NCBI GenBank assembly: GCA_000004985.1
Contig: GG738880.1
Length of the DNA: 64,000 nucleotides
Direction: 5' to 3' (one strand)
Origin: Naegleria gruberi
Taxonomy: Eukaryota
How positions within the stretch are numbered: position 1 is the first letter of the stretch; each line of letters begins with the position of its first letter. A program made the translations under genes and the position numbers. Shown here piece after piece: positions 6,935-64,000 of this stretch. The notes under the pieces were generated by a model. The model saw only the letters and a list, made by a program, of their open reading frames with translations, did not search any database and was not told the DNA's origin.

Positions 6935-7135
6935 GTTAAATAAATTCATCATGATCGTTCCAGTAAACAATGTCAAACATCTATTGAGAAATGATATACA
7001 GAGTTGGTATTAGCTGAAAGTGGTTTTAACTGCAGAAATTAAGAAGATCCTCAACTTCAAAACAATTCACAGTCTATGCAATTTGGCATATCCTAATATT
7101 CAAAGATTTTGCAAAATTGGTAAATAATTTATTAA

Positions 7136-7450: not shown

Positions 7451-7500
7451 NNNNNNNNNNNNNNNNNNNNNNNNNNNNNNNNNNNNNNNNNNNNNNNNNN
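7451..7500. other. assembly gap (50 N)
   Basis: Run of exactly 50 n characters. It interrupts the FTHFS reading frame. Confidence 0.97.
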
Positions 7501-7717
7501 TCTCAATATAACGATGATATTGATGATGAAAATTATGAAAAGAAATTAGAAAATGCATTTAATAGTGAAAAATCATTACTTTTATCTAATAGTAATAATA
7601 ATATTTCCTATTATGATAATAATGGTAAATTCTATTAATAATAATTATAATGAAATTCCAATTTTAGTTGAAAAGAAAAGATTTTCAAATTTTACAAAAA
7701 TATTTCAATCAGAATCA

Positions 7718-8722
7718 ATGAAGAGAGTTAGAAGATGGATAGCATTTATTGTTGGTTGTTTTATAATGACTGCAAGTGGTACTCCTTATTCATTTTCATC
7801 TATTAGTCCTTCTCTAAAAAAGTAAGTTTTTAATTTTATTTAAATATAATTTATTTTAATTATTATTATTTTTTTTAATTTAATTTTATAATATTATGAA
7901 AATAGAACATTTTTATTATCACAAAGTGAAGGTATGTTACAATTATATTGTTTTATTAAAATAATAATATTTCTATAAATAGTAAATTTAATAGGAACAT
8001 CAGCCAATTTAGGATCTAATTTTAGTTTTATATTTTCATTTGTAAATGATATATTTGGATCTAGAATTAGTAGTTTATTAGCAGGAGCATGTTTATTTTT
8101 TTCATATTTTTCCATGTCCTTAATTGTAACTGGTAATTTACCATTTATAGATCCATATATAGCATTTTGTTTTTTAATGTTTTTAATGGGAAGTGCATGT
8201 GGAGGTGGTTTTATATCTTCAATTTCTACTTCAATGAAGAATTTTCCAGAAAGAAATAGAGGTCTAGTTAGTATGTATTTAATTTTATTTAATGTTTATT
8301 TAATATTTTTATTTTTTTATTTATTTAATTTTATATTTAAATATATAAGTTGGAGTATTATCATCTTGTTATGGTATTAGTAGTGCAATATATTCAGGTG
8401 CATATTTATATATATTTCAACAAGATTTAGAAATTTATTTAATATTTTGTGCTGTATTAGGAGGTGTTGTAGTAATGATAATGGGTCCTATATTTTTAGA
8501 TAGTAAGGCTAATTCACTTACTATAAATAGTAATAATAATAAGAATAATCAAATTGATAATAATAATCAAATTGAAAATGAAAATGAATCATCCAATGTA
8601 GATAACGTAGATAATTTACAAGATGATAATGTAAATAATAATTTAAAAGAAAATAATTTAAAAGAAAATGAAACTTTAAAAGAAAGAATTACCAAAATAG
8701 AATTAAAATTAAAAGAAAATGA
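7718..8722 (+). CDS. nodulin-like major facilitator superfamily (MFS) transporter, 4 exons, 3' partial (runs into the gap): join(7718..7821,7906..7931,7983..8270,8350..>8722)
   Basis: Splicing removes all stops. Introns are 7822..7905 (gtaagt…aaatag), 7932..7982 (gtatgt…aaatag; an alternative acceptor at 7994 is also in frame) and 8271..8349 (gtatgt…tataag). The spliced product 'MKRVRRWIAFIVGCFIMTASGTPYSFSSISPSLKKTFLLSQSEVNLIGTSANLGSNFSFIFSFVNDIFGSR…MFLMGSACGGGFISSISTSMKNFPERNRGLVIGVLSSCYGISSAIYSGAYLYIF…' parallels the plant nodulin-like MFS N-terminus ('RWLVFVAAMWIQSCAGIGYLFGSISPVIKS…SRGPVVGILKGFAGLGGAILSQVY'). It then enters an N-rich low-complexity loop. The start could instead be the upstream ATG at 7553. 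Confidence 0.7.
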
Positions 8723-11700
8723 NNNNNNNNNNNNNNNNNNNNNNNNNNNNNNNNNNNNNNNNNNNNNNNNNNNNNNNNNNNNNNNNNNNNNNNNNNNNNN
8801 NNNNNNNNNNNNNNNNNNNNNNNNNNNNNNNNNNNNNNNNNNNNNNNNNNNNNNNNNNNNNNNNNNNNNNNNNNNNNNNNNNNNNNNNNNNNNNNNNNNN
8901 NNNNNNNNNNNNNNNNNNNNNNNNNNNNNNNNNNNNNNNNNNNNNNNNNNNNNNNNNNNNNNNNNNNNNNNNNNNNNNNNNNNNNNNNNNNNNNNNNNNN
9001 NNNNNNNNNNNNNNNNNNNNNNNNNNNNNNNNNNNNNNNNNNNNNNNNNNNNNNNNNNNNNNNNNNNNNNNNNNNNNNNNNNNNNNNNNNNNNNNNNNNN
9101 NNNNNNNNNNNNNNNNNNNNNNNNNNNNNNNNNNNNNNNNNNNNNNNNNNNNNNNNNNNNNNNNNNNNNNNNNNNNNNNNNNNNNNNNNNNNNNNNNNNN
9201 NNNNNNNNNNNNNNNNNNNNNNNNNNNNNNNNNNNNNNNNNNNNNNNNNNNNNNNNNNNNNNNNNNNNNNNNNNNNNNNNNNNNNNNNNNNNNNNNNNNN
9301 NNNNNNNNNNNNNNNNNNNNNNNNNNNNNNNNNNNNNNNNNNNNNNNNNNNNNNNNNNNNNNNNNNNNNNNNNNNNNNNNNNNNNNNNNNNNNNNNNNNN
9401 NNNNNNNNNNNNNNNNNNNNNNNNNNNNNNNNNNNNNNNNNNNNNNNNNNNNNNNNNNNNNNNNNNNNNNNNNNNNNNNNNNNNNNNNNNNNNNNNNNNN
9501 NNNNNNNNNNNNNNNNNNNNNNNNNNNNNNNNNNNNNNNNNNNNNNNNNNNNNNNNNNNNNNNNNNNNNNNNNNNNNNNNNNNNNNNNNNNNNNNNNNNN
9601 NNNNNNNNNNNNNNNNNNNNNNNNNNNNNNNNNNNNNNNNNNNNNNNNNNNNNNNNNNNNNNNNNNNNNNNNNNNNNNNNNNNNNNNNNNNNNNNNNNNN
9701 NNNNNNNNNNNNNNNNNNNNNNNNNNNNNNNNNNNNNNNNNNNNNNNNNNNNNNNNNNNNNNNNNNNNNNNNNNNNNNNNNNNNNNNNNNNNNNNNNNNN
9801 NNNNNNNNNNNNNNNNNNNNNNNNNNNNNNNNNNNNNNNNNNNNNNNNNNNNNNNNNNNNNNNNNNNNNNNNNNNNNNNNNNNNNNNNNNNNNNNNNNNN
9901 NNNNNNNNNNNNNNNNNNNNNNNNNNNNNNNNNNNNNNNNNNNNNNNNNNNNNNNNNNNNNNNNNNNNNNNNNNNNNNNNNNNNNNNNNNNNNNNNNNNN
10001 NNNNNNNNNNNNNNNNNNNNNNNNNNNNNNNNNNNNNNNNNNNNNNNNNNNNNNNNNNNNNNNNNNNNNNNNNNNNNNNNNNNNNNNNNNNNNNNNNNNN
10101 NNNNNNNNNNNNNNNNNNNNNNNNNNNNNNNNNNNNNNNNNNNNNNNNNNNNNNNNNNNNNNNNNNNNNNNNNNNNNNNNNNNNNNNNNNNNNNNNNNNN
10201 NNNNNNNNNNNNNNNNNNNNNNNNNNNNNNNNNNNNNNNNNNNNNNNNNNNNNNNNNNNNNNNNNNNNNNNNNNNNNNNNNNNNNNNNNNNNNNNNNNNN
10301 NNNNNNNNNNNNNNNNNNNNNNNNNNNNNNNNNNNNNNNNNNNNNNNNNNNNNNNNNNNNNNNNNNNNNNNNNNNNNNNNNNNNNNNNNNNNNNNNNNNN
10401 NNNNNNNNNNNNNNNNNNNNNNNNNNNNNNNNNNNNNNNNNNNNNNNNNNNNNNNNNNNNNNNNNNNNNNNNNNNNNNNNNNNNNNNNNNNNNNNNNNNN
10501 NNNNNNNNNNNNNNNNNNNNNNNNNNNNNNNNNNNNNNNNNNNNNNNNNNNNNNNNNNNNNNNNNNNNNNNNNNNNNNNNNNNNNNNNNNNNNNNNNNNN
10601 NNNNNNNNNNNNNNNNNNNNNNNNNNNNNNNNNNNNNNNNNNNNNNNNNNNNNNNNNNNNNNNNNNNNNNNNNNNNNNNNNNNNNNNNNNNNNNNNNNNN
10701 NNNNNNNNNNNNNNNNNNNNNNNNNNNNNNNNNNNNNNNNNNNNNNNNNNNNNNNNNNNNNNNNNNNNNNNNNNNNNNNNNNNNNNNNNNNNNNNNNNNN
10801 NNNNNNNNNNNNNNNNNNNNNNNNNNNNNNNNNNNNNNNNNNNNNNNNNNNNNNNNNNNNNNNNNNNNNNNNNNNNNNNNNNNNNNNNNNNNNNNNNNNN
10901 NNNNNNNNNNNNNNNNNNNNNNNNNNNNNNNNNNNNNNNNNNNNNNNNNNNNNNNNNNNNNNNNNNNNNNNNNNNNNNNNNNNNNNNNNNNNNNNNNNNN
11001 NNNNNNNNNNNNNNNNNNNNNNNNNNNNNNNNNNNNNNNNNNNNNNNNNNNNNNNNNNNNNNNNNNNNNNNNNNNNNNNNNNNNNNNNNNNNNNNNNNNN
11101 NNNNNNNNNNNNNNNNNNNNNNNNNNNNNNNNNNNNNNNNNNNNNNNNNNNNNNNNNNNNNNNNNNNNNNNNNNNNNNNNNNNNNNNNNNNNNNNNNNNN
11201 NNNNNNNNNNNNNNNNNNNNNNNNNNNNNNNNNNNNNNNNNNNNNNNNNNNNNNNNNNNNNNNNNNNNNNNNNNNNNNNNNNNNNNNNNNNNNNNNNNNN
11301 NNNNNNNNNNNNNNNNNNNNNNNNNNNNNNNNNNNNNNNNNNNNNNNNNNNNNNNNNNNNNNNNNNNNNNNNNNNNNNNNNNNNNNNNNNNNNNNNNNNN
11401 NNNNNNNNNNNNNNNNNNNNNNNNNNNNNNNNNNNNNNNNNNNNNNNNNNNNNNNNNNNNNNNNNNNNNNNNNNNNNNNNNNNNNNNNNNNNNNNNNNNN
11501 NNNNNNNNNNNNNNNNNNNNNNNNNNNNNNNNNNNNNNNNNNNNNNNNNNNNNNNNNNNNNNNNNNNNNNNNNNNNNNNNNNNNNNNNNNNNNNNNNNNN
11601 NNNNNNNNNNNNNNNNNNNNNNNNNNNNNNNNNNNNNNNNNNNNNNNNNNNNNNNNNNNNNNNNNNNNNNNNNNNNNNNNNNNNNNNNNNNNNNNNNNNN

Positions 11701-14700
11701 NNNNNNNNNNNNNNNNNNNNNNNNNNNNNNNNNNNNNNNNNNNNNNNNNNNNNNNNNNNNNNNNNNNNNNNNNNNNNNNNNNNNNNNNNNNNNNNNNNNN
11801 NNNNNNNNNNNNNNNNNNNNNNNNNNNNNNNNNNNNNNNNNNNNNNNNNNNNNNNNNNNNNNNNNNNNNNNNNNNNNNNNNNNNNNNNNNNNNNNNNNNN
11901 NNNNNNNNNNNNNNNNNNNNNNNNNNNNNNNNNNNNNNNNNNNNNNNNNNNNNNNNNNNNNNNNNNNNNNNNNNNNNNNNNNNNNNNNNNNNNNNNNNNN
12001 NNNNNNNNNNNNNNNNNNNNNNNNNNNNNNNNNNNNNNNNNNNNNNNNNNNNNNNNNNNNNNNNNNNNNNNNNNNNNNNNNNNNNNNNNNNNNNNNNNNN
12101 NNNNNNNNNNNNNNNNNNNNNNNNNNNNNNNNNNNNNNNNNNNNNNNNNNNNNNNNNNNNNNNNNNNNNNNNNNNNNNNNNNNNNNNNNNNNNNNNNNNN
12201 NNNNNNNNNNNNNNNNNNNNNNNNNNNNNNNNNNNNNNNNNNNNNNNNNNNNNNNNNNNNNNNNNNNNNNNNNNNNNNNNNNNNNNNNNNNNNNNNNNNN
12301 NNNNNNNNNNNNNNNNNNNNNNNNNNNNNNNNNNNNNNNNNNNNNNNNNNNNNNNNNNNNNNNNNNNNNNNNNNNNNNNNNNNNNNNNNNNNNNNNNNNN
12401 NNNNNNNNNNNNNNNNNNNNNNNNNNNNNNNNNNNNNNNNNNNNNNNNNNNNNNNNNNNNNNNNNNNNNNNNNNNNNNNNNNNNNNNNNNNNNNNNNNNN
12501 NNNNNNNNNNNNNNNNNNNNNNNNNNNNNNNNNNNNNNNNNNNNNNNNNNNNNNNNNNNNNNNNNNNNNNNNNNNNNNNNNNNNNNNNNNNNNNNNNNNN
12601 NNNNNNNNNNNNNNNNNNNNNNNNNNNNNNNNNNNNNNNNNNNNNNNNNNNNNNNNNNNNNNNNNNNNNNNNNNNNNNNNNNNNNNNNNNNNNNNNNNNN
12701 NNNNNNNNNNNNNNNNNNNNNNNNNNNNNNNNNNNNNNNNNNNNNNNNNNNNNNNNNNNNNNNNNNNNNNNNNNNNNNNNNNNNNNNNNNNNNNNNNNNN
12801 NNNNNNNNNNNNNNNNNNNNNNNNNNNNNNNNNNNNNNNNNNNNNNNNNNNNNNNNNNNNNNNNNNNNNNNNNNNNNNNNNNNNNNNNNNNNNNNNNNNN
12901 NNNNNNNNNNNNNNNNNNNNNNNNNNNNNNNNNNNNNNNNNNNNNNNNNNNNNNNNNNNNNNNNNNNNNNNNNNNNNNNNNNNNNNNNNNNNNNNNNNNN
13001 NNNNNNNNNNNNNNNNNNNNNNNNNNNNNNNNNNNNNNNNNNNNNNNNNNNNNNNNNNNNNNNNNNNNNNNNNNNNNNNNNNNNNNNNNNNNNNNNNNNN
13101 NNNNNNNNNNNNNNNNNNNNNNNNNNNNNNNNNNNNNNNNNNNNNNNNNNNNNNNNNNNNNNNNNNNNNNNNNNNNNNNNNNNNNNNNNNNNNNNNNNNN
13201 NNNNNNNNNNNNNNNNNNNNNNNNNNNNNNNNNNNNNNNNNNNNNNNNNNNNNNNNNNNNNNNNNNNNNNNNNNNNNNNNNNNNNNNNNNNNNNNNNNNN
13301 NNNNNNNNNNNNNNNNNNNNNNNNNNNNNNNNNNNNNNNNNNNNNNNNNNNNNNNNNNNNNNNNNNNNNNNNNNNNNNNNNNNNNNNNNNNNNNNNNNNN
13401 NNNNNNNNNNNNNNNNNNNNNNNNNNNNNNNNNNNNNNNNNNNNNNNNNNNNNNNNNNNNNNNNNNNNNNNNNNNNNNNNNNNNNNNNNNNNNNNNNNNN
13501 NNNNNNNNNNNNNNNNNNNNNNNNNNNNNNNNNNNNNNNNNNNNNNNNNNNNNNNNNNNNNNNNNNNNNNNNNNNNNNNNNNNNNNNNNNNNNNNNNNNN
13601 NNNNNNNNNNNNNNNNNNNNNNNNNNNNNNNNNNNNNNNNNNNNNNNNNNNNNNNNNNNNNNNNNNNNNNNNNNNNNNNNNNNNNNNNNNNNNNNNNNNN
13701 NNNNNNNNNNNNNNNNNNNNNNNNNNNNNNNNNNNNNNNNNNNNNNNNNNNNNNNNNNNNNNNNNNNNNNNNNNNNNNNNNNNNNNNNNNNNNNNNNNNN
13801 NNNNNNNNNNNNNNNNNNNNNNNNNNNNNNNNNNNNNNNNNNNNNNNNNNNNNNNNNNNNNNNNNNNNNNNNNNNNNNNNNNNNNNNNNNNNNNNNNNNN
13901 NNNNNNNNNNNNNNNNNNNNNNNNNNNNNNNNNNNNNNNNNNNNNNNNNNNNNNNNNNNNNNNNNNNNNNNNNNNNNNNNNNNNNNNNNNNNNNNNNNNN
14001 NNNNNNNNNNNNNNNNNNNNNNNNNNNNNNNNNNNNNNNNNNNNNNNNNNNNNNNNNNNNNNNNNNNNNNNNNNNNNNNNNNNNNNNNNNNNNNNNNNNN
14101 NNNNNNNNNNNNNNNNNNNNNNNNNNNNNNNNNNNNNNNNNNNNNNNNNNNNNNNNNNNNNNNNNNNNNNNNNNNNNNNNNNNNNNNNNNNNNNNNNNNN
14201 NNNNNNNNNNNNNNNNNNNNNNNNNNNNNNNNNNNNNNNNNNNNNNNNNNNNNNNNNNNNNNNNNNNNNNNNNNNNNNNNNNNNNNNNNNNNNNNNNNNN
14301 NNNNNNNNNNNNNNNNNNNNNNNNNNNNNNNNNNNNNNNNNNNNNNNNNNNNNNNNNNNNNNNNNNNNNNNNNNNNNNNNNNNNNNNNNNNNNNNNNNNN
14401 NNNNNNNNNNNNNNNNNNNNNNNNNNNNNNNNNNNNNNNNNNNNNNNNNNNNNNNNNNNNNNNNNNNNNNNNNNNNNNNNNNNNNNNNNNNNNNNNNNNN
14501 NNNNNNNNNNNNNNNNNNNNNNNNNNNNNNNNNNNNNNNNNNNNNNNNNNNNNNNNNNNNNNNNNNNNNNNNNNNNNNNNNNNNNNNNNNNNNNNNNNNN
14601 NNNNNNNNNNNNNNNNNNNNNNNNNNNNNNNNNNNNNNNNNNNNNNNNNNNNNNNNNNNNNNNNNNNNNNNNNNNNNNNNNNNNNNNNNNNNNNNNNNNN

Positions 14701-44353: not shown

Positions 44354-46107
44354 AGTTAGCAAAACCAGTCTTAACAGCTTCAACGTCTGGTTGGGTAACA
44401 TTCTTCAATGCACATCCACCGTGGAATTTAAGAGCACGAATACTGGCAACAATGACAGCAACAGATGGCTTCAAACCAGAAATTCTGCACTTGATGTCAA
44501 AGAACTTTTCACCACCAATATCACCACCAAAACCAGCTTCAGTCAAAACAAAACCATCTTCACCAACAAGTCTCAAAGCAATATCATCAGCAATAATACC
44601 ATTTTGACCAGCAGCAATATTAGCAAATGGACCAGCATGAACAAAAACTGGAGTAGATTCAATAGTTTGCATCAAAGTTGGCTTAATGGTGTCCTTCATC
44701 AAGACAGCCATAGCACCAGCAACACCAACATCTTCAGCAGTAACTGCATTACCATCACGATCATAGGCAACAGTAATCTTACCAAATCTTTCTCTCATGT
44801 CTGTCAAATTCTTGGACAATGCCAAAACAGCCATACATTCAGAGGCAACAGCAATATCAAATTGAGTTTCTCTGGTTTGACCCTTTTCATTTGGACCTTG
44901 GCCAATAGTGATCTTTCTCAAATGTCTGTCGTTAATATCAACAACTCTGTTAATCTTAATAGTGGCTGGATCAATATTTAATCTGACGAGTTTTTCTCTT
45001 TCTTCTGGTGTTAATTTATCTGGATCTTCTCTTTCAGCAATACCTAATTTGGCCAATCTTTGGATCATGGATGGAACAAATTGTCTCTTTCCGTCCTTAC
45101 CAGCTGGACAAAGGTGATCAAAGAGTTGATCAGTCTTTTGATATGATTCATGGAAAACTCTAGTATCAACAGCAGCAGCCAACAAGTTATTGGCAGCAGC
45201 AATAGCGTGAATATCACCAGTCATGTGCAAATTGAATTCTTCCATAGGAACCTATTGTCAAATGATCATAAAATTTGAAAAAACAGTTCAATTATTGTGC
45301 ACTTACAATTTGTGAATAACCACCTCCAGCAGCACCACCCTTGATACCCTATAATTATTATTTGATTAATTATCATACTCCTCATTCAAAACTTACAAAA
45401 ACAGGTCCTTGTGATGGTTGTCTTAAACAAGAAACAACCTTTTTTCCGAGATGAGCACCCAAAGCTTGTGAGATACCCAAACAAGTTGTTGATTTACCTT
45501 CACCGAGAGGTGTTGGATTAATACCAGTAATCAAAACATAATTTCCCATTGGAGCATCTTGTCCTAAACGTTTAAGAATTTTCTTTCCATCAATCTTAGC
45601 CTTGTACTTTCCGTAAAATTCCAATTCTTCGTCAACATCAATGCCATAACGTGTGGCAATATCACCAATAAATTCAGGTTTACAATGTTGAGACACTTCA
45701 ATATCACTTGGGACAGGGACACGAATTTCACTCAATTTCTTACCAGTAATTGTTTCTTGTTGGGACATTTTTTTGTTGGTGTTGTTGTTGCAACCGGTTG
45801 AAGAACTGTAAGAGCGAAAAGAAGAGCCGGTTGAAGATGTTCTTGCTGATGATTCGCTACAATCAATAATATTAACATATTTGTGATGGGAAATTTGTTT
45901 GGCGCCAAAATTTAGGGAAGTATTCTTCTTCTTGTTGGTTGCAAGGCTTTTTGAGAAGCTTCTTCTTATCGATGATGATGAAGAGGTGGTTGAGCAAGTT
46001 GTTGATGATGCATTGTTCAATTGATGATTAGGAGTGTTACCGATGAGACGATCATGACACCAAAGTGATTGAATATTACACTTGGATTTTGTAATCTTAC
46101 GAAGCAT
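44354..46107 (-). CDS. formate--tetrahydrofolate ligase (monofunctional FTHFS), 5' portion in 3 exons, truncated by the gap on its 3' side: join(<44354..45251,45307..45348,45397..46107)
   Basis: Exon 1 encodes '…[49 protein letters not shown]…[46 protein letters not shown]' (FTHFS N-terminus with the P-loop 'TPLGEGKST'). Intron 45349..45396 is gtaagt…tatag. The 42-nt exon 2 encodes '[14 protein letters not shown]'. Intron 45252..45306 is gtaagt…caatag. Exon 3 encodes '[26 protein letters not shown]…' (the hallmark 'GDIHAI' motif). The ATG at 46107 is preceded by nothing in frame. The first 113 aa are an S/T/N-rich extension; an alternative start is 'MSQQ' at 45768. Confidence 0.85.
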
Positions 46108-46596: not shown

Positions 46597-47371
46597 TTAT
46601 TGGAATTTCTTCTTGGCATATTCCTCACCAAATAATTTACAAAGTACATTCATACATGGTCCATATTCTGCTTTCTGCATTAAATCCCACTCTACAGTAA
46701 ATAATACGAAATGTTTAAATAAAGTATTGATGTGAGCTGAGATACCTAAATTATTAATATATGATCCATGTCTATGATAAATGTGTGCAAAAACTCTAAA
46801 AAGTCTTGAAAATATTTTAACAACAGTTGGTTTGACTATTTTAGAAACGGATCATGATATTCTAAACAAATTATTCTAAACTAAACTTACATTTCTTTGG
46901 ATATGCTTTATCATCTTGTTGTGGAAATACTTTTGGATCATCCAATTTAGTATCAATCCATTCAGATAATAAATTAATATACAAAGGAGCCGAAACTGTT
47001 GTTGGTTGATGATATTGTACATTAGTTGATTCATCATCGAACCATCTATATTCATAACAATCTCCACCACTCATAGATGGACAATTTAATTCAGTACAAT
47101 CATGATTTAATTTCATACTATCAATTAGTAGGAATAAATTTTCATAAAATTCCAAAACGTGTTGAGCCAACCAATCCTTCTCATCAACTTGTGAAGGTAA
47201 TTTTACCAATTGTTCCAATTCTCTAATACTTGCTGAGAGTCCTGATATGATCACTGATTGTCTGTGATGATGGTGATGATGACCATTTGATGTACTTGTG
47301 GTTGGTGCTGTTGTTTGTTGCACTGTAAAAATTGATTGTTGTCTCTTTCGTTTGAAAAAGTTAGATAACAT
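46597..47371 (-). CDS. MOB kinase activator (Mob1/phocein family), 2 exons: join(46597..46835,46891..47371)
   Basis: Exon 1 encodes '…LPSQVDEKDWLAQHVLEFYENLFLLIDSMKLNHDCTELNCPSMSGGDCYEYRWFDDE…LYINLLSEWIDTKLDDPKVFPQQDDKAYPKK' (Mob1 core, Cys/His Zn-site pattern). It is phase 1 at 46891. Intron 46836..46890 is gtaagt…aaaatag. Exon 2 encodes 'FKPTVVKIFSRLFRVFAHIYHRHGSYINNLGISAHINTLFKHFVLFTVEWDLMQKAEYGPCMNVLCKLFGEEYAKKKFQ*', matching the Mob1 C-terminus 'RLFRVYAHIYH.HF…AHLNT.FKHF'. The N-terminus contains an H6 tract. Confidence 0.85.
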
Positions 47372-52271: not shown

Positions 52272-53225
52272 TTACTTCTTTTCAGCAGCTGGAGCTTCAT
52301 CCAATTCTCTGCAGTATGGCTTTGGAAGATCACCATCTTGGAAAAGGAGAGTCTTTTGTCCACCAAGTGGTTCAGCATATCTACGTCCATTTTGAGAACC
52401 AATTTGTTTTGGATATTCACCCTTCTTCAACATTTCAATAATTTCAATAGCACGAACAGCTGTCAAATCTTCGAAATAATCATATTTAAATTCTGGAGGG
52501 TTAGAGTAATCGGAAACAGCAATCATTGGAGCATTAGCACAACAACCCATACATTCCATTTCTCCTAAAGTGAACAAACCATCTTGAGTAGTTTCACCCA
52601 ATTTAATTCCTAAATGTTGTTCAAGAGTAGCCAAAATATTATCACATCCAGTTATCATACATGGAGTAGTAATACAGACTTGAATGTGGTACTTTCCGAC
52701 AGGTTGAGTATTGAACATAGTATAGAAGGAAACACATTCAAAAACATTTCTTGGATTAACTTCACAGATTTCAGCAATCTTGTTAATAGCAGCCAATGGA
52801 ATCCATCCACCATTTTGACGTTGAGCCAAGTGGAGCAAAGGTAAGATACCAGATTGTTTGTGTTTACTTGGATATTTAGCAAGAATTTTCTTGATTTCAG
52901 CATATGATTCTGGTGAGAAATCAAAAGGAGTGTTAACATTATTGTATTCAGTATCAACATGCTGTAATAATAATAACATTCAATTATAATTGTAGTAATC
53001 ATTTAAAATTAATAACAACAAGAATAATTTCAATAATAATAAAATCCGTGATGAAAAAATTCATATGAAGATAACAACAAGAATAAAATCCACACATTTT
53101 CAATAAAACTTGATTCCATCATCACTACATACCTTGTATTGCAAGAATGAAGAGCGGGTTGTAGAGAAACATCTCTTATTGTTGAGGACGACTCTTCTGA
53201 GAAGGTTGTTGGTATTTCTAAGCAT
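52272..53225 (-). CDS. ndufv2: NADH dehydrogenase (ubiquinone) flavoprotein 2, 24-kDa subunit of complex I (NDUFV2), 2 exons: join(52272..52961,53133..53225)
   Basis: Exon 1 encodes a 31-aa presequence 'MLRNTNNLLRRVVLNNKRCFSTTRSSFLQYK'. Intron 52962..53132 is gtatgt…ttacag. Exon 2 'HVDTEYNNVNTPFDFSPESYAEIKKILAKYP…LPLLHLAQRQNGGWIPLAAINKIAEI…VGKYHIQVCITTPCM…LFTLGEMECMGCCANAPMIAVSDY…YFEDLT' carries the 24-kDa subunit 2Fe-2S Cys motifs. Confidence 0.9.
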
Positions 53226-53450
53226 TTTTATCTTGTTGGTAAAATTTTTACAAGCCTTTGTTTGTTCTTGTCGTTGTCTAGTCAAATATACAAATGAAGG
53301 CTTGAACCAATGCTCCAAATACATCCAAATTTAATTGGAGTGCAATGAGCTGTTGCTGGTGATCCAAGATCATTTAATAATTAAATAATTGATTTTATGT
53401 ATTGAAAATGTAAATTACCTGCTGTGTAAACAATTGGCCAAATAACAAAC

Positions 53451-54818
53451 ATGATTTTATTAGATTTAAAAATGTCTTCACCACAATTGGGCCAATCATC
53501 GGGTGTTGCTGTTGCTTCTCCCACAACATTGCAATCTCCCCGATTTCTACAACAGCAATCAATGATTACCTCTCCTAAACCTACTCTATTTGATTGGATC
53601 AAGGAACATTTATTGTTCATGAATAATTCAACTCCGTACAAGATTAATATTTCAAATATGGGTAAAAGTAATAGGAAACAACTTAATTTTGATAGATTTC
53701 AATTGGAAATACCTGTATTTTGTATAGGGGAGTGCAGTTTGTCAATTCATTTGTTTTATGATGGATCAAGACCTCATTCTCCTTTTGATTTTCAAATAAT
53801 TTCGGATTTGTCATCATCTTATCTGCAGAATTTCATGATTGACTCATCAAAATTGCAGAGTATGATTGAATGGAGAGATTTGTATATTAGATATTTGCAA
53901 CATCATGATGTTTCTAAAGAACTTTGTACATTTACATTTAGAACTATTAGTGAAATAATAGAATTTTTAACAGAATACTACAAGCTTGTAATTTCAAAAC
54001 ATAAGAATGATAATATTAGATTCGAATTTGATACTACTCAAAGTATTGGAGGAGCTAATTTTTATATTAAGGAATTATATTCAAATGATGGAACAGAATG
54101 CTCAACTGAGAAGATTTACTTTCTAGTTCCACTTTCAATTTCAGGCTTAGAAAAAATTGAGGAATATCAAAGATTATTCGATGTAAATACTATTCAATTA
54201 CCTGATTCCAAACCAAAACTACTTGTCGTCTACTCCTATGATAAGTCAAGAGATGTAATTGTTAATGTAAATACAGAAATTATCTATCCAACCAGTGTAA
54301 AGAACAGTAAGAGATTACAATGGTTGACACAAATTCCAATTCCATCATGGAATCAAGGTAAATCATGTATAATTGAATATATGTTAGAAGCTGTGGAAAA
54401 TATTGAATCTGAGGTTGAAAAGTACACTCAAAAACTCAAAGCTCGTCTAGAGTTTATCAAACAATTACTTGCTGCCTTTGGCAATCCTACAGACTTTTCT
54501 GAGAATGAATCTCTTACTAAGATTTCATTTCTAATGGAACGAGACAAGTTTCAATTCTTCCTTCACATTACACTTGAAAGAGAGGGTTTCCCAATTGTGC
54601 AACCAGTGATTAGAATGCAATCAACTCAATACTTTAAATCCTCGGATAGAGTTAAAGATAAATTATTGCCTGTTCGTGTTCGAGTACAACAATTGAACTG
54701 GACAGAAGGAGGGAGTGCTGAAGTGATGACAAAGAACGTTGAACAAATCCGTATTCAAGTTCTGGCCTTGTTGGGCGAATTTATCAAAGTTTGCCAATCG
54801 GAAGGAACAAGCCAATAA
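53451..54818 (+). CDS. BRE/BABAM2-like protein (BRISC and BRCA1-A complex member 2 homologue; tandem UEV-like domains)
   Basis: 'NFDRFQLEIPVFCIGECSLSIHLFYDGSRPHSPFDFQI' parallels human BRE '[35 protein letters not shown]'. The C-terminal 'KISFLMERDKFQFFLHITLEREGFPIVQPVIRMQSTQYF' parallels '[38 protein letters not shown]'. Continuous 455-codon ORF. The start is either ATG 53451 or the ATG at 53472 ('MSSPQ'). Confidence 0.6.
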   Translation: MILLDLKMSSPQLGQSSGVAVASPTTLQSPRFLQQQSMITSPKPTLFDWIKEHLLFMNNSTPYKINISNMGKSNRKQLNFDRFQLEIPVFCIGECSLSIHLFYDGSRPHSPFDFQIISDLSSSYLQNFMIDSSKLQSMIEWRDLYIRYLQHHDVSKELCTFTFRTISEIIEFLTEYYKLVISKHKNDNIRFEFDTTQSIGGANFYIKELYSNDGTECSTEKIYFLVPLSISGLEKIEEYQRLFDVNTIQLPDSKPKLLVVYSYDKSRDVIVNVNTEIIYPTSVKNSKRLQWLTQIPIPSWNQGKSCIIEYMLEAVENIESEVEKYTQKLKARLEFIKQLLAAFGNPTDFSENESLTKISFLMERDKFQFFLHITLEREGFPIVQPVIRMQSTQYFKSSDRVKDKLLPVRVRVQQLNWTEGGSAEVMTKNVEQIRIQVLALLGEFIKVCQSEGTSQ

Positions 54819-54923
54819 ATAGTTTACTTTATTACTTTTCCAACAAGACAATAACCAATAATTAAAAATAAATAAGAATTGAATTTTATATTTTGAATTT
54901 TTAAATATATACCGGTAATTAGT

Positions 54924-55367
<444 letters not shown>

Positions 55368-55904
55368 TCAACAAACATTTTACAATAAAATATTTCTCTC
55401 TCATCCACAAGCTAAAAACCTGAACCAAATAAAATAGTAATATTTTGATTAATAATGAATATTTCATGAACGAAATTGAAGTCAATTTAATCTTTGAATG
55501 ATAATTCAGAATGAACGTGTGTTTGTTTCTTGAAAGTCTATACAACGTCCCTTTAAATCATTCTCTAAATTTTAAAGAAGAAACTTGAGGACTCCTTCAT
55601 TTCTGTAATTAAAAGAAAGAATTTCAATTTCCAAATTAAAAGAACACAACAGAATAAATTGATGATTCCATCATACAAATTGGTGTTCTATTAAATAATA
55701 GAATTAATATTCATTGAACATATTAATTTTAGGCTTTCCTTCCCGCCATACAGAATGCAAAATTCAAAAAAATTGCTCCACATTTTTGTTCGTCATCATC
55801 ACGACCCGATTTTTGGAATAATTACTCATCAATTCACTGCACGAGTTTTATAAATCGGATTATTCCTGCTACAACATAGTTAATAGTAGAGTTGATTTAT
55901 CGGA

Positions 55905-57551
55905 ATGTTTGATTTTTTAAAAAGATTTCTTCCAACAAGCCTTGGTGGAAACGTCACGCAAGAACCTATCAACAAGAGAAAGAGAGAGGATATGGCTGCA
56001 GACCAACATGATGAATTTGCTAATAATAATAATAACAATACAAAGAAAACAAAGCCAAACATACCAGAAATGCCAATAACGACAACAACATCAGAAAACA
56101 ACAAATTACCAAATACTACTCAACAAGTTAAGGATAGTAAAAAGGAAGAATCGAGTGAACTAGCAATATTCTTGAAAAAACAACAAGAAACGGAAAACCA
56201 AATAATACCTATACGATCCCATAAGAAGAAGAATGTGAAAAAAGCAAAATCTAAATTAATTTCCGAAAAACCAATACTAACAGATGAAGTAATTGTTTTG
56301 GATGATGACGAAGATGATTTGAAACATGCTTACAAAAAGTTAGATGGAAATCTTGTGAATGAAAAGTATATTCAAAACCACAGTGAGGCTATTCATACTA
56401 AGCTTAACACTCAACAAAAGGTCAATTCCGAAATCAAAGTTCCACATATGCCAGTGGGAGGAATGGTTACAGAAAAGAAGAATGAAAAGAAAGTAGAATC
56501 GGTACCTATTCGTGTACAACCAAAACCACCTATAATTATTTCTAGAAAGCTTTTCAACAATAAGGATAAGGGTCCAACACTCTTTAGAGGAGATCAAGTT
56601 GATAGATTAACATCAAAGTTGGATTCAATTTTATCATTGAAGGAAAAATCAGAGGAAACTAGAATCACTAGATCTTTCATTGAAAAGGAGGCCATAAATA
56701 GAGCATCATCTAAGATTATTTCAATACTTTGTAAAGAGCTTTTGGGAGAGGAAGCAAAAAAACTTCATGCTGATTCACTACCACAAGCAGTGTATAACAA
56801 ATTAGTTTCTGAAATTATTACAGAGACTGTTGCTAAGGAAAAAGAGACTTTCCCACTATCAGAAAGAGACAGGAATTTTGTGGCACAAATTTTCCGAGAT
56901 GCACACAAAAAACCTCAAGAAGTTCTTGTACTTAAATTCAATATTGACATTACTAGAGCTAAAATTCAATGTCTTAATGGACTTGAATGGCTAAATGATG
57001 AAGTAATCAACTTTTATCTCAACATGGTCAAAGAAAGAAGTGAAAAGAATCCAGACAAGTATCCTAAAATCCATGTTTTCAACACATTTTTCTATGCCAA
57101 GTTGACTGGTGAACATAATAACACTTATAATTATAGTGCTGTGAGAAGGTGGACCAAGAAAATTGATCTTTTAGAATATGATAAGATTATTATTCCTATC
57201 CACTTGTCAGTTCACTGGACTCTTGCAATAATTAATTTGAGAGATAGCAAATTTGAATTTTTTGATTCAATGAATGGTCATAGAACAGGTATGAAGGTAT
57301 TACAAAATTTGGAAAAATACTTAGTTGACGAGATTAAAGACAAGAAGGGTGTTACATACGAAACGTCTTCTTGGGAGAAGAGTATGCCACCAGTTCCTCA
57401 ACAAGCAAATGGATCAGATTGTGGAGTTTTCACTTGTAAATTTGCCAATTATGCTGCCCAAGATTTGCCATTTTCCTTTTCACAAAAACACATGCGTTAT
57501 TTTAGAGATAGAATGGTTTTGGAGATTGTTAGAGCTAAAGAATTACTATAA
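55905..57551 (+). CDS. Ulp1/SENP-family SUMO-specific cysteine protease (peptidase C48)
   Basis: The C-terminal catalytic domain has 'LNDEVINFYLNMV', 'IIIPIHLSVHWTLAIIN' (His), 'FFDSMNG' (Asp) and 'QQANGSDCGVFTCKFANYAA' (Cys). The N-terminal ~300 aa are low complexity (N6 tract, K-rich). Confidence 0.9.
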   Translation: MFDFLKRFLPTSLGGNVTQEPINKRKREDMAADQHDEFANNNNNNTKKTKPNIPEMPITTTTSENNKLPNTTQQVKDSKKEESSELAIFLKKQQETENQIIPIRSHKKKNVKKAKSKLISEKPILTDEVIVLDDDEDDLKHAYKKLDGNLVNEKYIQNHSEAIHTKLNTQQKVNSEIKVPHMPVGGMVTEKKNEKKVESVPIRVQPKPPIIISRKLFNNKDKGPTLFRGDQVDRLTSKLDSILSLKEKSEETRITRSFIEKEAINRASSKIISILCKELLGEEAKKLHADSLPQAVYNKLVSEIITETVAKEKETFPLSERDRNFVAQIFRDAHKKPQEVLVLKFNIDITRAKIQCLNGLEWLNDEVINFYLNMVKERSEKNPDKYPKIHVFNTFFYAKLTGEHNNTYNYSAVRRWTKKIDLLEYDKIIIPIHLSVHWTLAIINLRDSKFEFFDSMNGHRTGMKVLQNLEKYLVDEIKDKKGVTYETSSWEKSMPPVPQQANGSDCGVFTCKFANYAAQDLPFSFSQKHMRYFRDRMVLEIVRAKELL

Positions 57552-57556
57552 ATTAT

Positions 57557-60500
57557 TTATTTTGAAAACAATTTGGCCTGTGAGAGTAGTTCTGTACTTA
57601 ATTGAATGATATTGTTGCACTTTAATCCACAAGTTTCAAAATTGATAATGTCAGACGTATCTTGCTTTAAAGAGTTAGCTAAAAGAACCCATCCGCTCAA
57701 TCTCTTATAAAACAAGTCTACAACAGATTCATCCAAGCGTAGTATTGGAGTTGGGGCTTCTTTTGCTTGCTCTCCATCTTTTGGCTTAATATTCGTAAGA
57801 ATGGAGGCTGAGGATACTGTTTCCTCAGATGCTAATCTTCTTTTTGTGAGCTGTCTTTCTAATTTGAAATTTCGTTTCAAAAGCTCAAATAGATATCTGT
57901 CTGCTTTTAAGGTTTCATTGATATTGGAGGGTTTCTCATTTCTCATAGAATTGTCTTCCAAGAAAACTACTTTCTTTTTAGAGCTTGTTGGATAGTTCAA
58001 ATAACAACCTGTTTTGATTATTTTTCTAGATAGGCTCATCACTACTTGAATGTTAAACGGTGTAAGGAGAATATTCAAACATTTCTCAAATTCACTTTCG
58101 AATAATGAGAGCAAATTTAAATTGTGTAATAAATTTTGCAAATCTAAATCCAATCTGAAAGGAGAGCAATAATCTTTACGAGTGGCATGCACAAAAGCAC
58201 ATGCCATATTATCAAACAAAACTCTTCCTTTTTCCATATCAAATATAATAGAATCATCCCTAACATTGCCCAATCCAATAAACCAACTAATAGCAGACCA
58301 TTTAGCAAGGTCTCTAACAACCCTTTCACACATGTCGTACCAGGAATTTTTGTAAATGTGATATTTCGTTATTAAGACAGTGTTTTTCTTCTTGGTTTCC
58401 ACATCATAGGACATGAGTGAATAGTGTTGGGATGCGTGCTGAGAAAAATATTGGAATAATACAGTTTCTGGCTTTTTGAGAGAAAAATTGAGTGATTTCA
58501 AAGACTGTAAATCCACAAATGAAGAGTTTGATTGTTTTCTAATTACTTTGAAATAATTTCCTCCCATCTTCATAATTGGTATCATTTCCAACTGTTCCAT
58601 CCCAATAAAATTCCCAATTGCATTCGAGGTTAACATTTCCAAATTTGAGGCATCCATGGTTGGAATGGGAGAAAGTGTAATGGCGAGACTTTCTTTTGAG
58701 GTTTCCTGATCAAAATCTCTATCAATTTGAATTCGCATCTCCCACAAATTATTGTTATTTTCATATGAAAATTTGGAAATTTCGATCGAGTTAACAAATT
58801 GCATCCATTTAAAACCAGTATCCTTTGCTGTTGATTTTCCAATATATTTAAACAGTTCCAATAATGAATTAAAGAATTCTTCTTTGTTAACTGAGGATTC
58901 CAAATTATTATGTAGCACATTATTGATCACTGATAAGGAAGCTTGAATCATTTTAAATTTGTGGTCATCACAATATTCCATAAATTTTCTGAACATTTCC
59001 AAGTTGCAAAATCTAAGAAAGTCCAAAACAAAGTTAATATTTTCCAGAGATGAATACTTTTGAATCGATTTGTAAGAGTTCTTAAAGAGAAATAATGATA
59101 CTAATCGGTTCAATTCTTCTCCATTGAATGTCTCAATAATGAAGGAGAAAATTTTAGCCCATCCCGTACAGAATGTAACACTTTCAAGCATGTCTTTGTC
59201 AATAAATCTGTATTCTATAAGATATGACAGTATATTGATGCAATGTTTTAGCTCTGTTACTGTCATTGAATTCTTACAATCTATTAATTTTGAAATATTC
59301 TCCAAAAAATCAAATATTAATAAATGTACACAATAGAAAACCGATGGCTTTTGTGTTTCTAAATCTGGTTGATAAGTAAATGATCCAAAATTGGAAGGGC
59401 ATAGGTTAGTGCATGTTTGGGAGAGAATTTCTTCCATTGTGAAATTTCTATTTGAATACTTATTGTTGGAAACTACAGATGAGAATAGGATGATTACAGA
59501 TTCTAGTGTTATAGTTCTTAAACAAAAGGAAATATTTTCAGGTAGTTCTATTTTAGAAGAGAGTAGCGCATAACCTATTCTCCAATCTAGCATTCCATTG
59601 TCTTGTGAAATCTTCCTAAGACCAAAGGTATCCTCATTTTTGATTGGATTATCTGTATTGGTAATGAATTCAACAAACTCTTTCCAATCTACCTTTTTTG
59701 ATTTTCGTATTGTAGTCTTTGATTGAAGTAAGAGCTGCTTTCTGACAAAATCGAATACTTTTGTGGAATCTCTTTCAAGAGAAGCATAGCAATCAGATAA
59801 CATTGAACAAAAAAGATTCAAAAACTCTCCACATGTTTTGAGTTCGATTTTGTTCAATCTGAATTTCAAAGATTCATCCTTAATTGACCATTCATGTAGA
59901 ATGAAATTTAAATTAATGGATATATCTTCAATATTACTAGTTTGTTCACAAATGATTTGAATTCTTTCATGAATAACAGCATCACTCGAAGTATCATTAA
60001 ATATATAGAAAATACATTTCCAAAATAGAGAATTTTTCTTTCCATGTATAAATTTAGAATCAAATTCTTCACTTATTACTATTTGTATAGGTTCCTCTGT
60101 TGTTTGTTTGTTTGTTTCTAGATTCATTTCTTCAACTGTTTCTACAAGTGGCTCTGTATTTCTATCAATAAAATCTTGGGCTAAGTCTAATAAACTATGG
60201 CGATTCAAATACCATTCAGAAGAATCCACAGTATGAATTGAAGAGTCAGATTGTGAAAGTTTCATAATATGAAGAAGGATAAGATGTGACTCAACAACAG
60301 GCTCCTTATATCTACTTGTAATTGATTCTACTGTTTTAACATAATCAATGATGGTATTTGTAGACAAATTCTCAATAGAACTAAAAATGTTTCTACTAGA
60401 ATTATTGGATTCGGGGTTCATTCCCTGCAATATATCAAAGAAGGGAGTCTTTTGATCTCTCCTACTCAGTTCGTATTGAATCCATTGTAAACAGGTGGAA

Positions 60501-63500
60501 GAGATCTTATCTTTGAGTACCAACTCTATTACTTTGATTTTTTCTGTTGTTAAAAGCTTGTTCTCAGTAAGCATCTTCTTGATAATATTCTCATAGGTGG
60601 TGGTGTTAATTTGTCGAGCAAAGTTGGCCAAATCTGATACAGTGTTCATTTCTTTCGAGTTGAGGAATGAAACATCTCCTTTCTTTAGAGTTTCCACTAG
60701 TTGGTAGTTGATTTTTTGTTCAGAATTCATTGAGTCAGAGTACGACTTGAGGAATAACTCGAAATTCTTCTTTTTCTCATCCTCTCTTATAGATCTATCC
60801 AATAGATTCTTTGCAAACAAGTAGGGAATAACATCAGGATACTCATTGGAAATTTTCTGAATGAAACTATCATTGGAATTAGTTAAAGATATGTATGATC
60901 CCAATATTTCACAAATATTTTCCTTATACAACCCTTTCAAATAATTCAAATAGGGCCAAAGATTATTAAAACCCATCTTGAACTCCTCAATCAATGAGGA
61001 ATATTCAATATTTGCATTGGATCTATTAAACTTGTTTAGAGTAACTCTTAATTTGAATAAATCAAACTCTGATAGCAGCTGTCTGGTCTCAATCGATTTG
61101 GCTTGCATTTTGATAATACTCAAATCTAGTTTCGATAAATATGATTCAAGATTATCGTTTAGGCCTATAAGAAAAGCAATTTTACATAGAGGATATAGCG
61201 TGTCAATTCTTGCAAATCTTGTAGAACCCATATTATTAGAAATTATCAGTGCTTGCTTTTTCATATTATTGGTGAGTAAATAAATTATTATCCATTGCCA
61301 ACAAGAAGTTTGAAACTTGGGATCAATTTCTTTAAGTGCTTGTTGTGCCTTTTCATAGAATTGAGTTTGATAGTATTGACTAGAGGGTGATCGTAAACTG
61401 AACTTCAATTCAAATATGATTGTCTTTGGTTTTTTCATGTAATCAGCACTTATACTGTGAATTGGATTCAGTGTTGAGAAGTAGCTCTCATTTGAAATGT
61501 AAGATATGTTTGCCTTAAGAAAGTGAATTGAAGATTTGTAGTTTTCCAAATTGAATATTTGGGCATGTTCAATCATGTTTGTTTTAAGCCAGTCTGGAAT
61601 ATTCTCAACAATTTTCTCAAGCTTTTCAAGCTCAGTTCTTGATTTTTCTATATCAAAATGATTGACATAGTATTTGGTTCCTAGTTTTAGTTTTTTGAGT
61701 TGAAATTCAATTGTGATTGGATTGAAATCTCTGTATACACTCGAAAAATTAGAGTCATCCAAAATATAGAATGTCTTTAACCGTAGATAGACGTATTCGT
61801 AATTCTTTGGGCTAGATCTTTGTAGATTTGATAATATTTGAAGAGCTTGCCTTGAAGATATGGTACTCTTCTTTTTGTAAAGAATTTTGGCTTGCAATAA
61901 CTGAAACTCTGGCGAAAGTTCACTAATATTTGAAACCTTAGGTATGTATTGTGATGCATTATTATAATCTTCAATGTTGTAATGATAAAGTGCTTTTTCA
62001 AAATCCACAGCAGATAAATTTCCACTTCCTTTATATCAAAAATTAATTAATTCGATAGATGAACTACACTTACTTGTTGCTTCGACCAAGCTTGTTTCAA
62101 TATATTTCCTAAGTTTTGAATTTGTTTTCAATGCACATTTCCCCATTCTATTGTAAGCATAAACTTGCATATAGTACGAAGAGTCATCCCTTTTAGTGAC
62201 CTCATCAAAAATCCACTTTGAATAGTCTAATAATTTCCAAGGACTTCCAGCACTTGCCAATGATATATAGTACCAGAAAAAAGTTGAGGAATCTTTACCT
62301 CCTGGCTTTTTGCCAATCATTACATGTCTGTCATAGAATAACTGCATCAAGATGAGTGATGTTTTGGCACATCCAAGTTTTGTTAAGTAGAACCACAATA
62401 GACGTAATGTTTGTGGATATTGAGAGCAAATGCTTTGGATTGTATAGTTATTGTAAATATCTTGAGTAAAGATAATTGGATCAATATTGAAAGAAGTTAA
62501 CAAGTATGAAAGAGCTCCCTCTATATCACCATTATAGTACTTCAATAGAGAAACATTATTACAAGCAGATTTTTCAATTTCAACAGATCTAAAACCAAGT
62601 GGTAATTGATTAAATCCAAACTGAAGTTTGGTACTATTTAGAAATCGTTCAAAAATAGTCGAGTTTGCATTGAATTGATTGGAATCGTCCTGAGATAAAA
62701 GCGAATCCAATAAGTTTTTCTTATATTCCAAACTTGCTAAACAATCACTCCCTGAAAATAATTCCAAAGCTTTTGTAATTACATTTTGTGCCAACTCATA
62801 ATTCCCTGTTTCCCAATAAATATCCACAATATTTTCAATTGATATTATTTGATATGGTGCTAATTCTAATCCCTTCATAAAAAATTCAATAGATTGCTTA
62901 TATAAACATCTATCTTTAAAAATAATTCCAAATAAATGATAAATTGATGGATTATTTGGATCTCTCTGTTTCATTTCATCCAAAATATGTATTGCCTCTG
63001 AATCCCAGCCCATATTATGTTTGATTAGTGCCAATGTTAATAAATAGGCAGTGTTATTTGGTTCACACTTTTTTGCTTTATAGCAACATTGAATGGCCTC
63101 TTCGTATTCCTCATGAATCATGTAAATTTCAGATAATGCTATCCAAGCATCAAAACTCGAATCTGTTTGTTTAATTATATTCAAGAAATATCCCTCAGCC
63201 CTATCTATATCATTTAATATCCTCAAATATCTTATTCCATTGTTTTTTATATTGAATTTCTCAATAAAAATACTTACAAATATCCTAAATTCAATAGTGG
63301 ATTAATTATTAAATGTTCATTTCTAATTTGTTGACTTTTTTGAAGGGAATATGTAAATGATTCGATGGATTTTTCAATTTCACCTCTATGTAATTGTAAG
63401 ACTCCAATATTATTAGTTACAAGAATATCCTCTTTTAGTAGTTCCTTTTTTCTCCCTATTAATTCTTTTGATTTTGCAAAACTGTCAAACGAAGATTGTA

Positions 63501-63671
63501 AATCTCCAATTTTATAATATAAATATCCTAATGTATTATATCCAACAATACTATTTTCGTTTGTTATTGATTTAGACACTTTAATATTTAAACAACAATA
63601 TCCGATAATTATTTACCTCGATCTATTAAATTATTTATTTCGGAAGTGTTATCCGAGAGGTGTGGAATCAT
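57557..63671 (-). CDS. large (~1994 aa) TPR/FAT-like helical-repeat protein with a C-terminal PI3K/PIKK-type kinase fold carrying degenerate catalytic motifs (probable pseudokinase), 4 exons: join(57557..62028,62074..63230,63278..63578,63617..63671)
   Basis: The exons join in frame: 63617..63671 'MIPHLSDNTSEINNLIDR', intron 63579..63616 (gtaaat…aaag, 38 nt); 63278..63578 TPR-like 'YNTLGYLYYKIGDLQSSFDSFAKSKEL…', intron 63231..63277 (gtaagt…aataag); 62074..63230 TPR repeats 'AWIALSEIYMIHEEYEEAIQCCYKAKKCEPNN…', intron 62029..62073 (gtaagt…ataaag); then the 4.47-kb last exon. Exon 2 has no Met, so an upstream exon is required. Near the C-terminus, 'WSAISWFIGLGNVRDDSIIFDMEKGRVLFDNMACAF…SPFRLDLDL' aligns with the PIKK/PI3K catalytic segment 'GYILGLGDRHxxNILxD..G.lvHIDFgxxF…vPFRLT'. 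GDRH is replaced by GNVR (58253..58276) and DFG by DNM (58205..58213). There is no FATC tail. Confidence 0.65.
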
Positions 63672-63708
63672 TTTTTTTGGTCGTATTTACAATTGTTTGT
63701 CTTACTTA

Positions 63709-64000
63709 TTAATATCCTGAAAGCTTTGAAGAGGACATCTTCTTTCCAGTTTTGCGTGGATCACCATTACGTTCAATTTCAGCACATTCATGAGTGATTG
63801 GATTATACTGAACAAATCTCTTATTAGGACTAGGTGTTGAAAGACCATTCTGTGAATAAAAAGATTGAGCAGTTGTTGTGTAAAAGTTTTGAGGATTTGA
63901 AGAGTAGAAGCTCTGAGATGATGGACTTCTGAATGGCTGTGGTTGATTGTTATATGATGAAGGACTCCTGTACATTTGAGGAGGAGGAGAGGTATATTGT
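63709..64000 (-). CDS. hypothetical S/Q/Y/P-rich low-complexity protein, 3' end; frame is open to the window edge, so possibly 5' partial
   Basis: '…MYRSPSSYNNQPQPFRSPSSQSFYSSNPQNFYTTTAQSFYSQNGLSTPSPNKRFVQYNPITHECAEIERNGDPRKTGKKMSSSKLSGY*'. The TAA at 63709..63711 is only 37 bp upstream of the next gene's ATG. No domain recognised. Confidence 0.3.
   Translation of the reverse strand, partial: QYTSPPPQMYRSPSSYNNQPQPFRSPSSQSFYSSNPQNFYTTTAQSFYSQNGLSTPSPNKRFVQYNPITHECAEIERNGDPRKTGKKMSSSKLSGY

Follow-up and report, generated by a model that had tools for sequence, protein, structure and literature searches.

The PI3K-related kinases (PIKKs) are generally divided into six families, a set regarded as fixed, namely ATM, ATR, DNA-PKcs and mTOR along with SMG1 and TRRAP. 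SMG1, which acts in nonsense-mediated decay, keeps the DRHxxN motif and its active site, and combines HEAT repeats and a FAT domain with a C-insertion of ~1000 aa and a FATC domain. TRRAP/Tra1, which belongs to SAGA and NuA4/TIP60, measures ~3700-3900 aa; HEAT repeats make up its N-terminus, its FAT domain can be recognised and its FATC is conserved. The literature repeatedly calls TRRAP/Tra1 the sole PIKK pseudokinase (for example PMC8926402, PMC8625110), and canonical SMG1 (including the C-insertion), ATM and ATR have been reported from Naegleria gruberi (PMC5709506). Here we characterize a gene of N. gruberi that encodes a 1994-aa protein and lies on the minus strand of a 64,000-nucleotide stretch of contig GG738880.1 (assembly GCA_000004985.1), referred to below as the window. 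An earlier note, made from the sequence alone, had read the product as a giant TPR/FAT-like protein ending in a PI3K/PIKK kinase fold with degenerate catalytic motifs. Our analysis makes it probable that the gene belongs to a small family of PIKK-derived pseudokinases not described before and that its product acts as a scaffold.

A search with aa 506-1994 of the window protein returned one full-length relative, the 2126-aa 'hypothetical protein' C9374_006677 of Naegleria lovaniensis (37% identity, 100% coverage, E=4.8e-284); pairwise identity over the whole protein is 42%. When the C-terminal 1073 aa were used as a profile to search 1.84 billion representative proteins exhaustively, six proteins were found, namely the orthologue FDP41_006799 from the pathogen Naegleria fowleri (2119 aa and labelled just 'hypothetical protein'), two short ENA fragments near the window species and three JGI metagenome fragments (P0005, P0006 and P0007). 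With six matches in a set of that size the family is rare, and at present it has little practical impact. The contig of P0005 (L002, 23.7 kb, 36% G+C) follows the window protein collinearly, beginning at the TPR exons and reaching the C-terminus; a prokaryotic gene caller has split the homologue (7000-12613) into six ORFs, and since the gaps among the five ORFs directly preceding P0005 measure 17-60 nt, very short introns like those of Naegleria are suggested. On the P0007 contig (L004), an upstream ORF matches the region before the kinase-like domain. The collinearity of these two contigs indicates that the architecture is conserved in other eukaryotic lineages at 19-25% identity. P0007 itself (L004 1673-2425) is labelled by JGI as a 'mannose/fructose/N-acetylgalactosamine-specific PTS component IIB'; it is a mis-annotated eukaryotic exon, the label having come from a weak PTSIIB_sorb match (E=0.026). 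A word-index homologue search with the kinase-domain alignment yielded just two fragments, both already found, and two scans of metagenome contigs gave no confirmed relatives. Judged by sequence, the family appears to comprise Naegleria (N. gruberi window, N. lovaniensis and N. fowleri) and three environmental eukaryotic lineages. The earlier statement that the protein maps onto no described family therefore stands, its relatives being 'hypothetical proteins' and un- or mis-annotated metagenome fragments; a literature search found no description of the family.

Homology of the C-terminal domain to PIKKs was detected by comparison with 177,635 PDB sequences. A profile of seven family sequences (A3) matched SMG1 (E=2.5e-6), ATM (2e-4), ATR (6e-3) and mTOR (0.05); its 27 best matches were all PIKKs, as was every match down to E=0.11. 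When the C-terminal 447 aa of the window protein were searched alone (phmmer), residues 2312-2388 of mTOR gave the best match (E=0.05) and the matches at E<=10 were PIKKs in 23 of 23 cases (mTOR, SMG1 and ATR). Alignment of the family by hhalign to 24 TOR/SMG1 fragments (<=140 aa, exon-sized, gathered by searching for homologues of the catalytic segments of mTOR and SMG1) had a probability of 95.2% and E=2.5e-8 over 78 columns. Collinearity with PIKKs extends over the helix preceding the catalytic loop (SWY…AKWSAISWFIGLG versus W…RSLAVMSMVGYILGLG), then the loop itself, the DFG position and the PFR motif. No PI4K or PI3K chain occurred among the PDB sequence matches, though many are present in the PDB. 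A PI4KA-like lipid kinase was rejected as a candidate because the sequence matches PIKKs only; lipid-kinase motifs and PI4Ks as nearest relatives, as in the type III PI 4-kinase alpha PI4KA/Stt4, were also lacking, and the PIK accessory domain had no Pfam match. Foldseek placed ATR as the best match of the kinase-like model (probability 0.99, 100 columns, 2.8 A), with E-values that were not significant; the structure-based alignments of the C-terminal domain span 159-205 residues. A PI3K/PIKK kinase fold is thereby supported at the level of predicted models. The proposed C-terminal homology is borne out by the profile and hhalign results for residues 1729-1806, with a Pfam match below threshold and a model of low confidence beside them.

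Neither the DRHxxN catalytic loop nor the metal-binding DFG motif of PIKKs was found intact in this domain, the second with an ambiguity of one residue. The motifs IGLGNVRDD, LFDNMAC and SPFRLD lie where the earlier note had placed them, and the replacement of the catalytic Asp and His that it described was confirmed and extends to the Asn: in the phmmer alignment mTOR D2338 corresponds to N and H2340 to R, and N2343 corresponds to S (the loop reads GNVRDDS). Its claim that the Asp of DFG is lost fared less clearly. Both HMMER and MAFFT align mTOR D2357 with Asn, but there is an Asp one residue upstream (FDNM), which in the family alignment stands opposite the 'HDE' Asp of N. lovaniensis and N. 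fowleri, so that a one-residue alignment choice decides and the call is ambiguous. Across six members the catalytic-Asp position is occupied by N, M, M, K, N and Y, with Asp in none of the six, and the His position of DRH reads R/S/S/H/I. P0006 keeps 'GLWNRHPQ' and P0007 'GLGYRIPSN…HDLGF'; their 'NRHP' and 'YRIPSN…HDLGF' resemble the TOR sequence 'GDRHPSN…HIDFGD', and both motifs are best read as relics of a putatively active 'GLGDRHPSN…HIDFGD' ancestor. The kinase domain would accordingly have descended from a TOR/SMG1/ATM-type ancestor with 'GLGDRHxxN…DFG…PFRLT'. The pattern fits an old catalytic loss followed by relaxed drift of the loop and not a new conserved active site. Canonical phosphotransfer is not expected, because no family member keeps the catalytic Asp.

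It is unlikely that the protein is instead an active unconventional kinase, or a nucleotide binder, that works with non-canonical residues. Such an activity would suit the conservation of the Asp beside DFG in the three Naegleria proteins, the 'DLG' of P0007 and the constraint on the catalytic segment, which is 84% identical between N. lovaniensis and N. fowleri. However, the residues at the catalytic positions differ from member to member (N/M/K/N/Y for Asp and R/S/S/H/I for His), which indicates relaxed constraint, and P0005 and P0006 have no Asp at or near the DFG position.

The remainder of the protein departs from the usual PIKK layout. Seven Pfam TPR-clan models (TPR_CcmH_CycH, TPR_8, TPR_12, TPR_2, TPR_1, TPR_14 and TPR_17) score above cut-off at aa ~30-290, consensus-TPR structures match the N-terminus with E-values down to 1.9e-28, and no HEAT or ARM family of Pfam passed threshold in the N-terminus. 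Tandem 34-residue motifs of TPR proteins are thus present in place of the N-terminal HEAT solenoid of PIKKs. The earlier description of TPR and not HEAT repeats was correct, but its 'FAT-like' label was not, as these are ordinary 34-residue TPRs some 1300 residues away from the kinase-like domain and are therefore not a FAT equivalent. The region that follows the TPRs (aa 291-920) matched no known family in Pfam or the PDB, and a profile of aa 285-925 found nothing informative in the PDB. Identity to N. lovaniensis is 51% in the TPR region, 46% for aa 291-505, 54% for aa 506-920 and 34% for aa 921-1575. By DSSP, aa 921-1575 form helices only, in a low-confidence AlphaFold model.

The ~196 residues beyond PFRL form helices, followed by a linker and then a terminal helix, in the low-confidence model, a layout that we take to be closer to PIKKs than to PI4Ks. 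The family signature in this part, also a helix in that model, is nearly invariant overall, and its residues D321, K329, R330, K333 and L334 are invariant in all seven family sequences. In non-significant HMMER output, GDxYLYKLLKR echoed 'LDAALFELIKR' inside the human SMG1 C-insertion, and the motif also gave weak coiled-coil-type matches to geminin (E~0.3). The tail at aa 1936-1994 is better conserved (46% identity) than the linker just before it (25%). No FATC occupies this extreme C-terminal position, as the earlier note had held: a Pfam scan found no FATC at E<=10 and no FAT, a FATC HMM made from six sequences gave the family tails scores that shuffled sequences equalled, and the protein ends in …AKLFSK without a terminal aromatic GWxPW-type motif.

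TRRAP/Tra1 is the described protein that the window protein most invites comparison with. Both are giant alpha-solenoids with a terminal PIKK-type kinase domain that lacks catalytic residues, and both would be non-catalytic scaffolds, an assignment made by analogy in our case. In contrast to TRRAP, the studied protein has 1994 aa, canonical N-terminal TPRs and no detectable FAT or FATC. We consider it improbable that the protein belongs to no separate family and is the orthologue of a known PIKK, strongly diverged and shortened, with TRRAP/Tra1 as the prime candidate. No TRRAP/Tra1 chain occurred among the PDB sequence matches at E<=10, where SMG1, ATM, ATR and mTOR were present; TRRAPs are thus not the nearest relatives, the protein is half the TRRAP size of ~3700 aa, and the HEAT-FAT-pseudokinase-FATC order is absent, with TPRs at the N-terminus and no FAT or FATC in Pfam. 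The orthologues of SMG1, ATM and ATR are moreover already accounted for in N. gruberi (PMC5709506), so the studied protein is not one of these. A divergent SMG1 orthologue was rejected on the same report, which includes a canonical SMG1 and leaves the studied protein as no more than a distant paralogue. Catalytic residues and FATC are absent from it, and its sequence beyond PFRL is limited to ~196 residues. It likewise differs from mTOR/TOR in having no detectable FRB, FAT or FATC, in the replacement of the catalytic Asp, His and Asn, and in having TPR instead of HEAT repeats. Catalysis was probably lost independently of TRRAP.

By analogy with TRRAP/Tra1, a catalytically dead scaffold would be the most likely state of the protein. 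This scaffold reading draws on the family-wide loss of the active site and on the stronger conservation of the TPR and middle regions, identity to N. lovaniensis being 51% in the TPRs and 54% at aa 506-920 versus 34-38% in the kinase-like domain. The proposed layout is an alpha-solenoid of ~2000 residues made of ~7 TPRs, ~1300 residues of family-specific helical repeats and the kinase domain. Recruitment of partner proteins would fall to the TPR array together with the highly conserved middle region, and the dead kinase domain would provide a structural core or a surface for docking. Evenly balanced, in our judgement, is the further proposal that the family is a seventh PIKK lineage: an ancient TOR/SMG1-type duplicate that exchanged HEAT for TPR repeats, lost FATC and catalysis independently of TRRAP and now acts as a scaffold or allosteric partner in Heterolobosea and uncultured protists. 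Were that so, TRRAP could no longer be called the only pseudokinase of the PIKKs. If the pseudokinase reading is true, PIKKs would have become scaffolds twice, independently, in this case on a TPR chassis without FATC and at half the usual size. The family would then show that FATC and HEAT repeats, held to define PIKKs, are dispensable, and offer a natural experiment on the role of a kinase fold without catalysis.

Several observations weigh against a PIKK-derived pseudokinase scaffold. Statistically supported PIKK homology is restricted to 78 residues of the C-lobe (aa 1729-1806). The match of the window protein alone to Pfam PI3_PI4_kinase (PF00454; E=0.0028, profile positions 96-223 of 241) reaches 18 bits against a gathering cut-off of 27.1 bits, and within the family this sub-threshold match is confined to the window protein; of the HMM checks that had been suggested, TPR thus came out above cut-off, the kinase model below it, and FAT and FATC not at all. 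A two-sequence profile (A2) had no match in the PDB, and a profile of the N-lobe region had no PIKK match there. Residues ~921-1575, which lie where a PIKK has its FAT domain, matched neither FAT nor PIKKs, by sequence (Pfam and PDB profile) or by fold. The suggested structure prediction gave ATR as the best match but came from models of low confidence (pLDDT 39 and 42, the fold evidence being from the latter), and AlphaFold may have been steered to a kinase fold by the same motif segment. Nucleotide or metal binding may persist, because an Asp adjoins the DFG position in three of three Naegleria proteins, and the scaffold role is proposed by analogy only.

Some of these points would also suit a spurious kinase likeness, in which a TPR/helical-repeat protein restricted to this lineage would end in an alpha/beta domain of other origin: scores of the window protein alone are marginal, the two-sequence profile is without a PDB match, and the models are of low confidence with Foldseek E-values that are not significant. 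We regard this as still less probable than the two alternatives above, given that the family profile reaches SMG1 at E=2.5e-6, that every match to E=0.11 is a PIKK, that hhalign gives 95%, and that the match is collinear from the hydrophobic helix and GLG through the catalytic loop and the DFG position to PFR, with different relics preserved in independent members.

The coordinates of the gene and its features are collected in Table 1. The ORF listing has long minus-strand open frames at 63274-63579, 62036-63226 and 57557-62008 with short gaps between them; splicing joins them, with compatible phases at all introns, into a coding sequence of 5985 nt (1994 aa and a stop), and the pairwise alignment to the N. 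lovaniensis orthologue is continuous over all three exon junctions. The earlier prediction of one gene of ~2000 aa in four exons is thus upheld, and the product was confirmed as that of one real, conserved gene of Naegleria type. Exon 4 is a single uninterrupted 4.47-kb frame from the end of the post-TPR region through the kinase-like domain. That a TPR gene and a kinase-like gene were falsely joined is very improbable. In its favour, exon 1 measures just 55 nt and starts with an ATG 37 nt past the stop of a neighbouring ORF. Against it, all three introns, small as they are, are bounded by canonical GT..AG and agree in phase, the layout recurs over the full length of the N. lovaniensis and N. 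fowleri proteins, which were annotated independently, and the L002 contig is collinear from the TPRs to the pseudokinase. On splicing, orthologue alignment, the N. fowleri protein and this collinearity a gene-fusion artefact was rejected.

Table 1. Positions in the window of the studied gene, its parts and the adjoining syntenic block
Feature	Position	Strand	Basis
Whole gene, 4 exons, 1994-aa product	57557..63671	-	ORFs, GT..AG introns, compatible phases, N. lovaniensis alignment
Exon 1 (aa 1-18 + 1 nt; ATG at 63671; 55 nt)	63617..63671	-	
Intron 1 (38 nt, GT..AG)	63579..63616	-	
Exon 2	63278..63578	-	
Intron 2 (47 nt, GTAAGT..AG)	63231..63277	-	
Exon 3	62074..63230	-	
Intron 3 (45 nt, GTAAGT..AG)	62029..62073	-	
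Exon 4 (aa 505-1994 + stop codon)	57557..62028	-	
Array of ~7 canonical TPRs (aa ~30-290), across intron 2	62717..63546	-	Pfam, consensus-TPR structures
Best-conserved part, aa 291-920, across intron 3	60782..62716	-	Identity to N. lovaniensis
All-helical region in position of PIKK FAT domain, aa 921-1575	58817..60781	-	DSSP, low-confidence model
PI3K/PIKK-like (pseudo)kinase domain, aa ~1576-1850	57992..58816	-	
Catalytic-loop to activation-loop segment, aa 1729-1806	58124..58357	-	SMG1 profile match, hhalign, mTOR 2312-2388 alignment
Degenerate catalytic loop IGLGNVRDD, aa 1755-1763 (PIKKs: LGLGDRHxxN)	58253..58279	-	
DFG-position relic (putative) LFDNMAC, aa 1775-1781	58199..58219	-	
SPFRLD, aa 1793-1798, counterpart of PIKK activation-loop 'PFRLT'	58148..58165	-	
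Family signature ADRYLFELLKRNFKLERQL, aa 1880-1898, consensus GDxYLYKLLKRxxKLE	57848..57904	-	Predicted helix after kinase core
Conserved C-terminal tail, aa 1936-1994, …VVDLFYKRLSGW…FETCGLKCNNIIQLSTELLSQAKLFSK, at FATC position	57560..57736	-	
Synteny block beside studied gene	52272-57551; N. lovaniensis L001 17018-22132		

A block of five genes is common to the window and N. lovaniensis: the studied gene, Peptidase_C48, ubiquitin-L40, BRE and a 2Fe-2S thioredoxin-like gene. The order and orientation of the neighbours, including the convergent Ulp1-type Peptidase_C48 gene, are the same in both, indicating that the studied gene is the syntenic orthologue of the N. lovaniensis gene. The stop of the studied gene (57557-57559) and that of the convergent Ulp1/Peptidase_C48 gene (ORF end 57551) are separated by 5 nt (57552-57556), and the 3' UTRs of the two genes must therefore overlap or be extremely short; the counterpart pair in N. 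lovaniensis is 36 nt apart (L001 16981 / 17018). On the other side, a same-strand ORF (63709-63975) encodes a Ser/Pro/Gln-rich C-terminal tail and its stop lies 37 nt (63672-63708) from the ATG of the studied gene, a gap that leaves almost no space for a promoter and 5' UTR. The gene upstream of the N. lovaniensis orthologue encodes an Acetyltransf_16 (tubulin acetyltransferase-like) protein.

Further along the window lie Mob1 (46871-47371) and a fragment of FTHFS (45382-46107). The window is AT-rich eukaryotic DNA with a G+C content of about 31%, and more than half of it is an assembly gap, a run of N of ~36 kb (~8700-44400) in which 'ORFs' of ~12,000 aa are artefacts. On the plus strand, a 2294-aa open frame (50-6934) contains lobes A and C of a DOCK DHR-2 domain (Pfam E=1.8e-29 and 3.7e-16); this frame of a DOCK-family Rho-GEF continues past the 5' end of the window.

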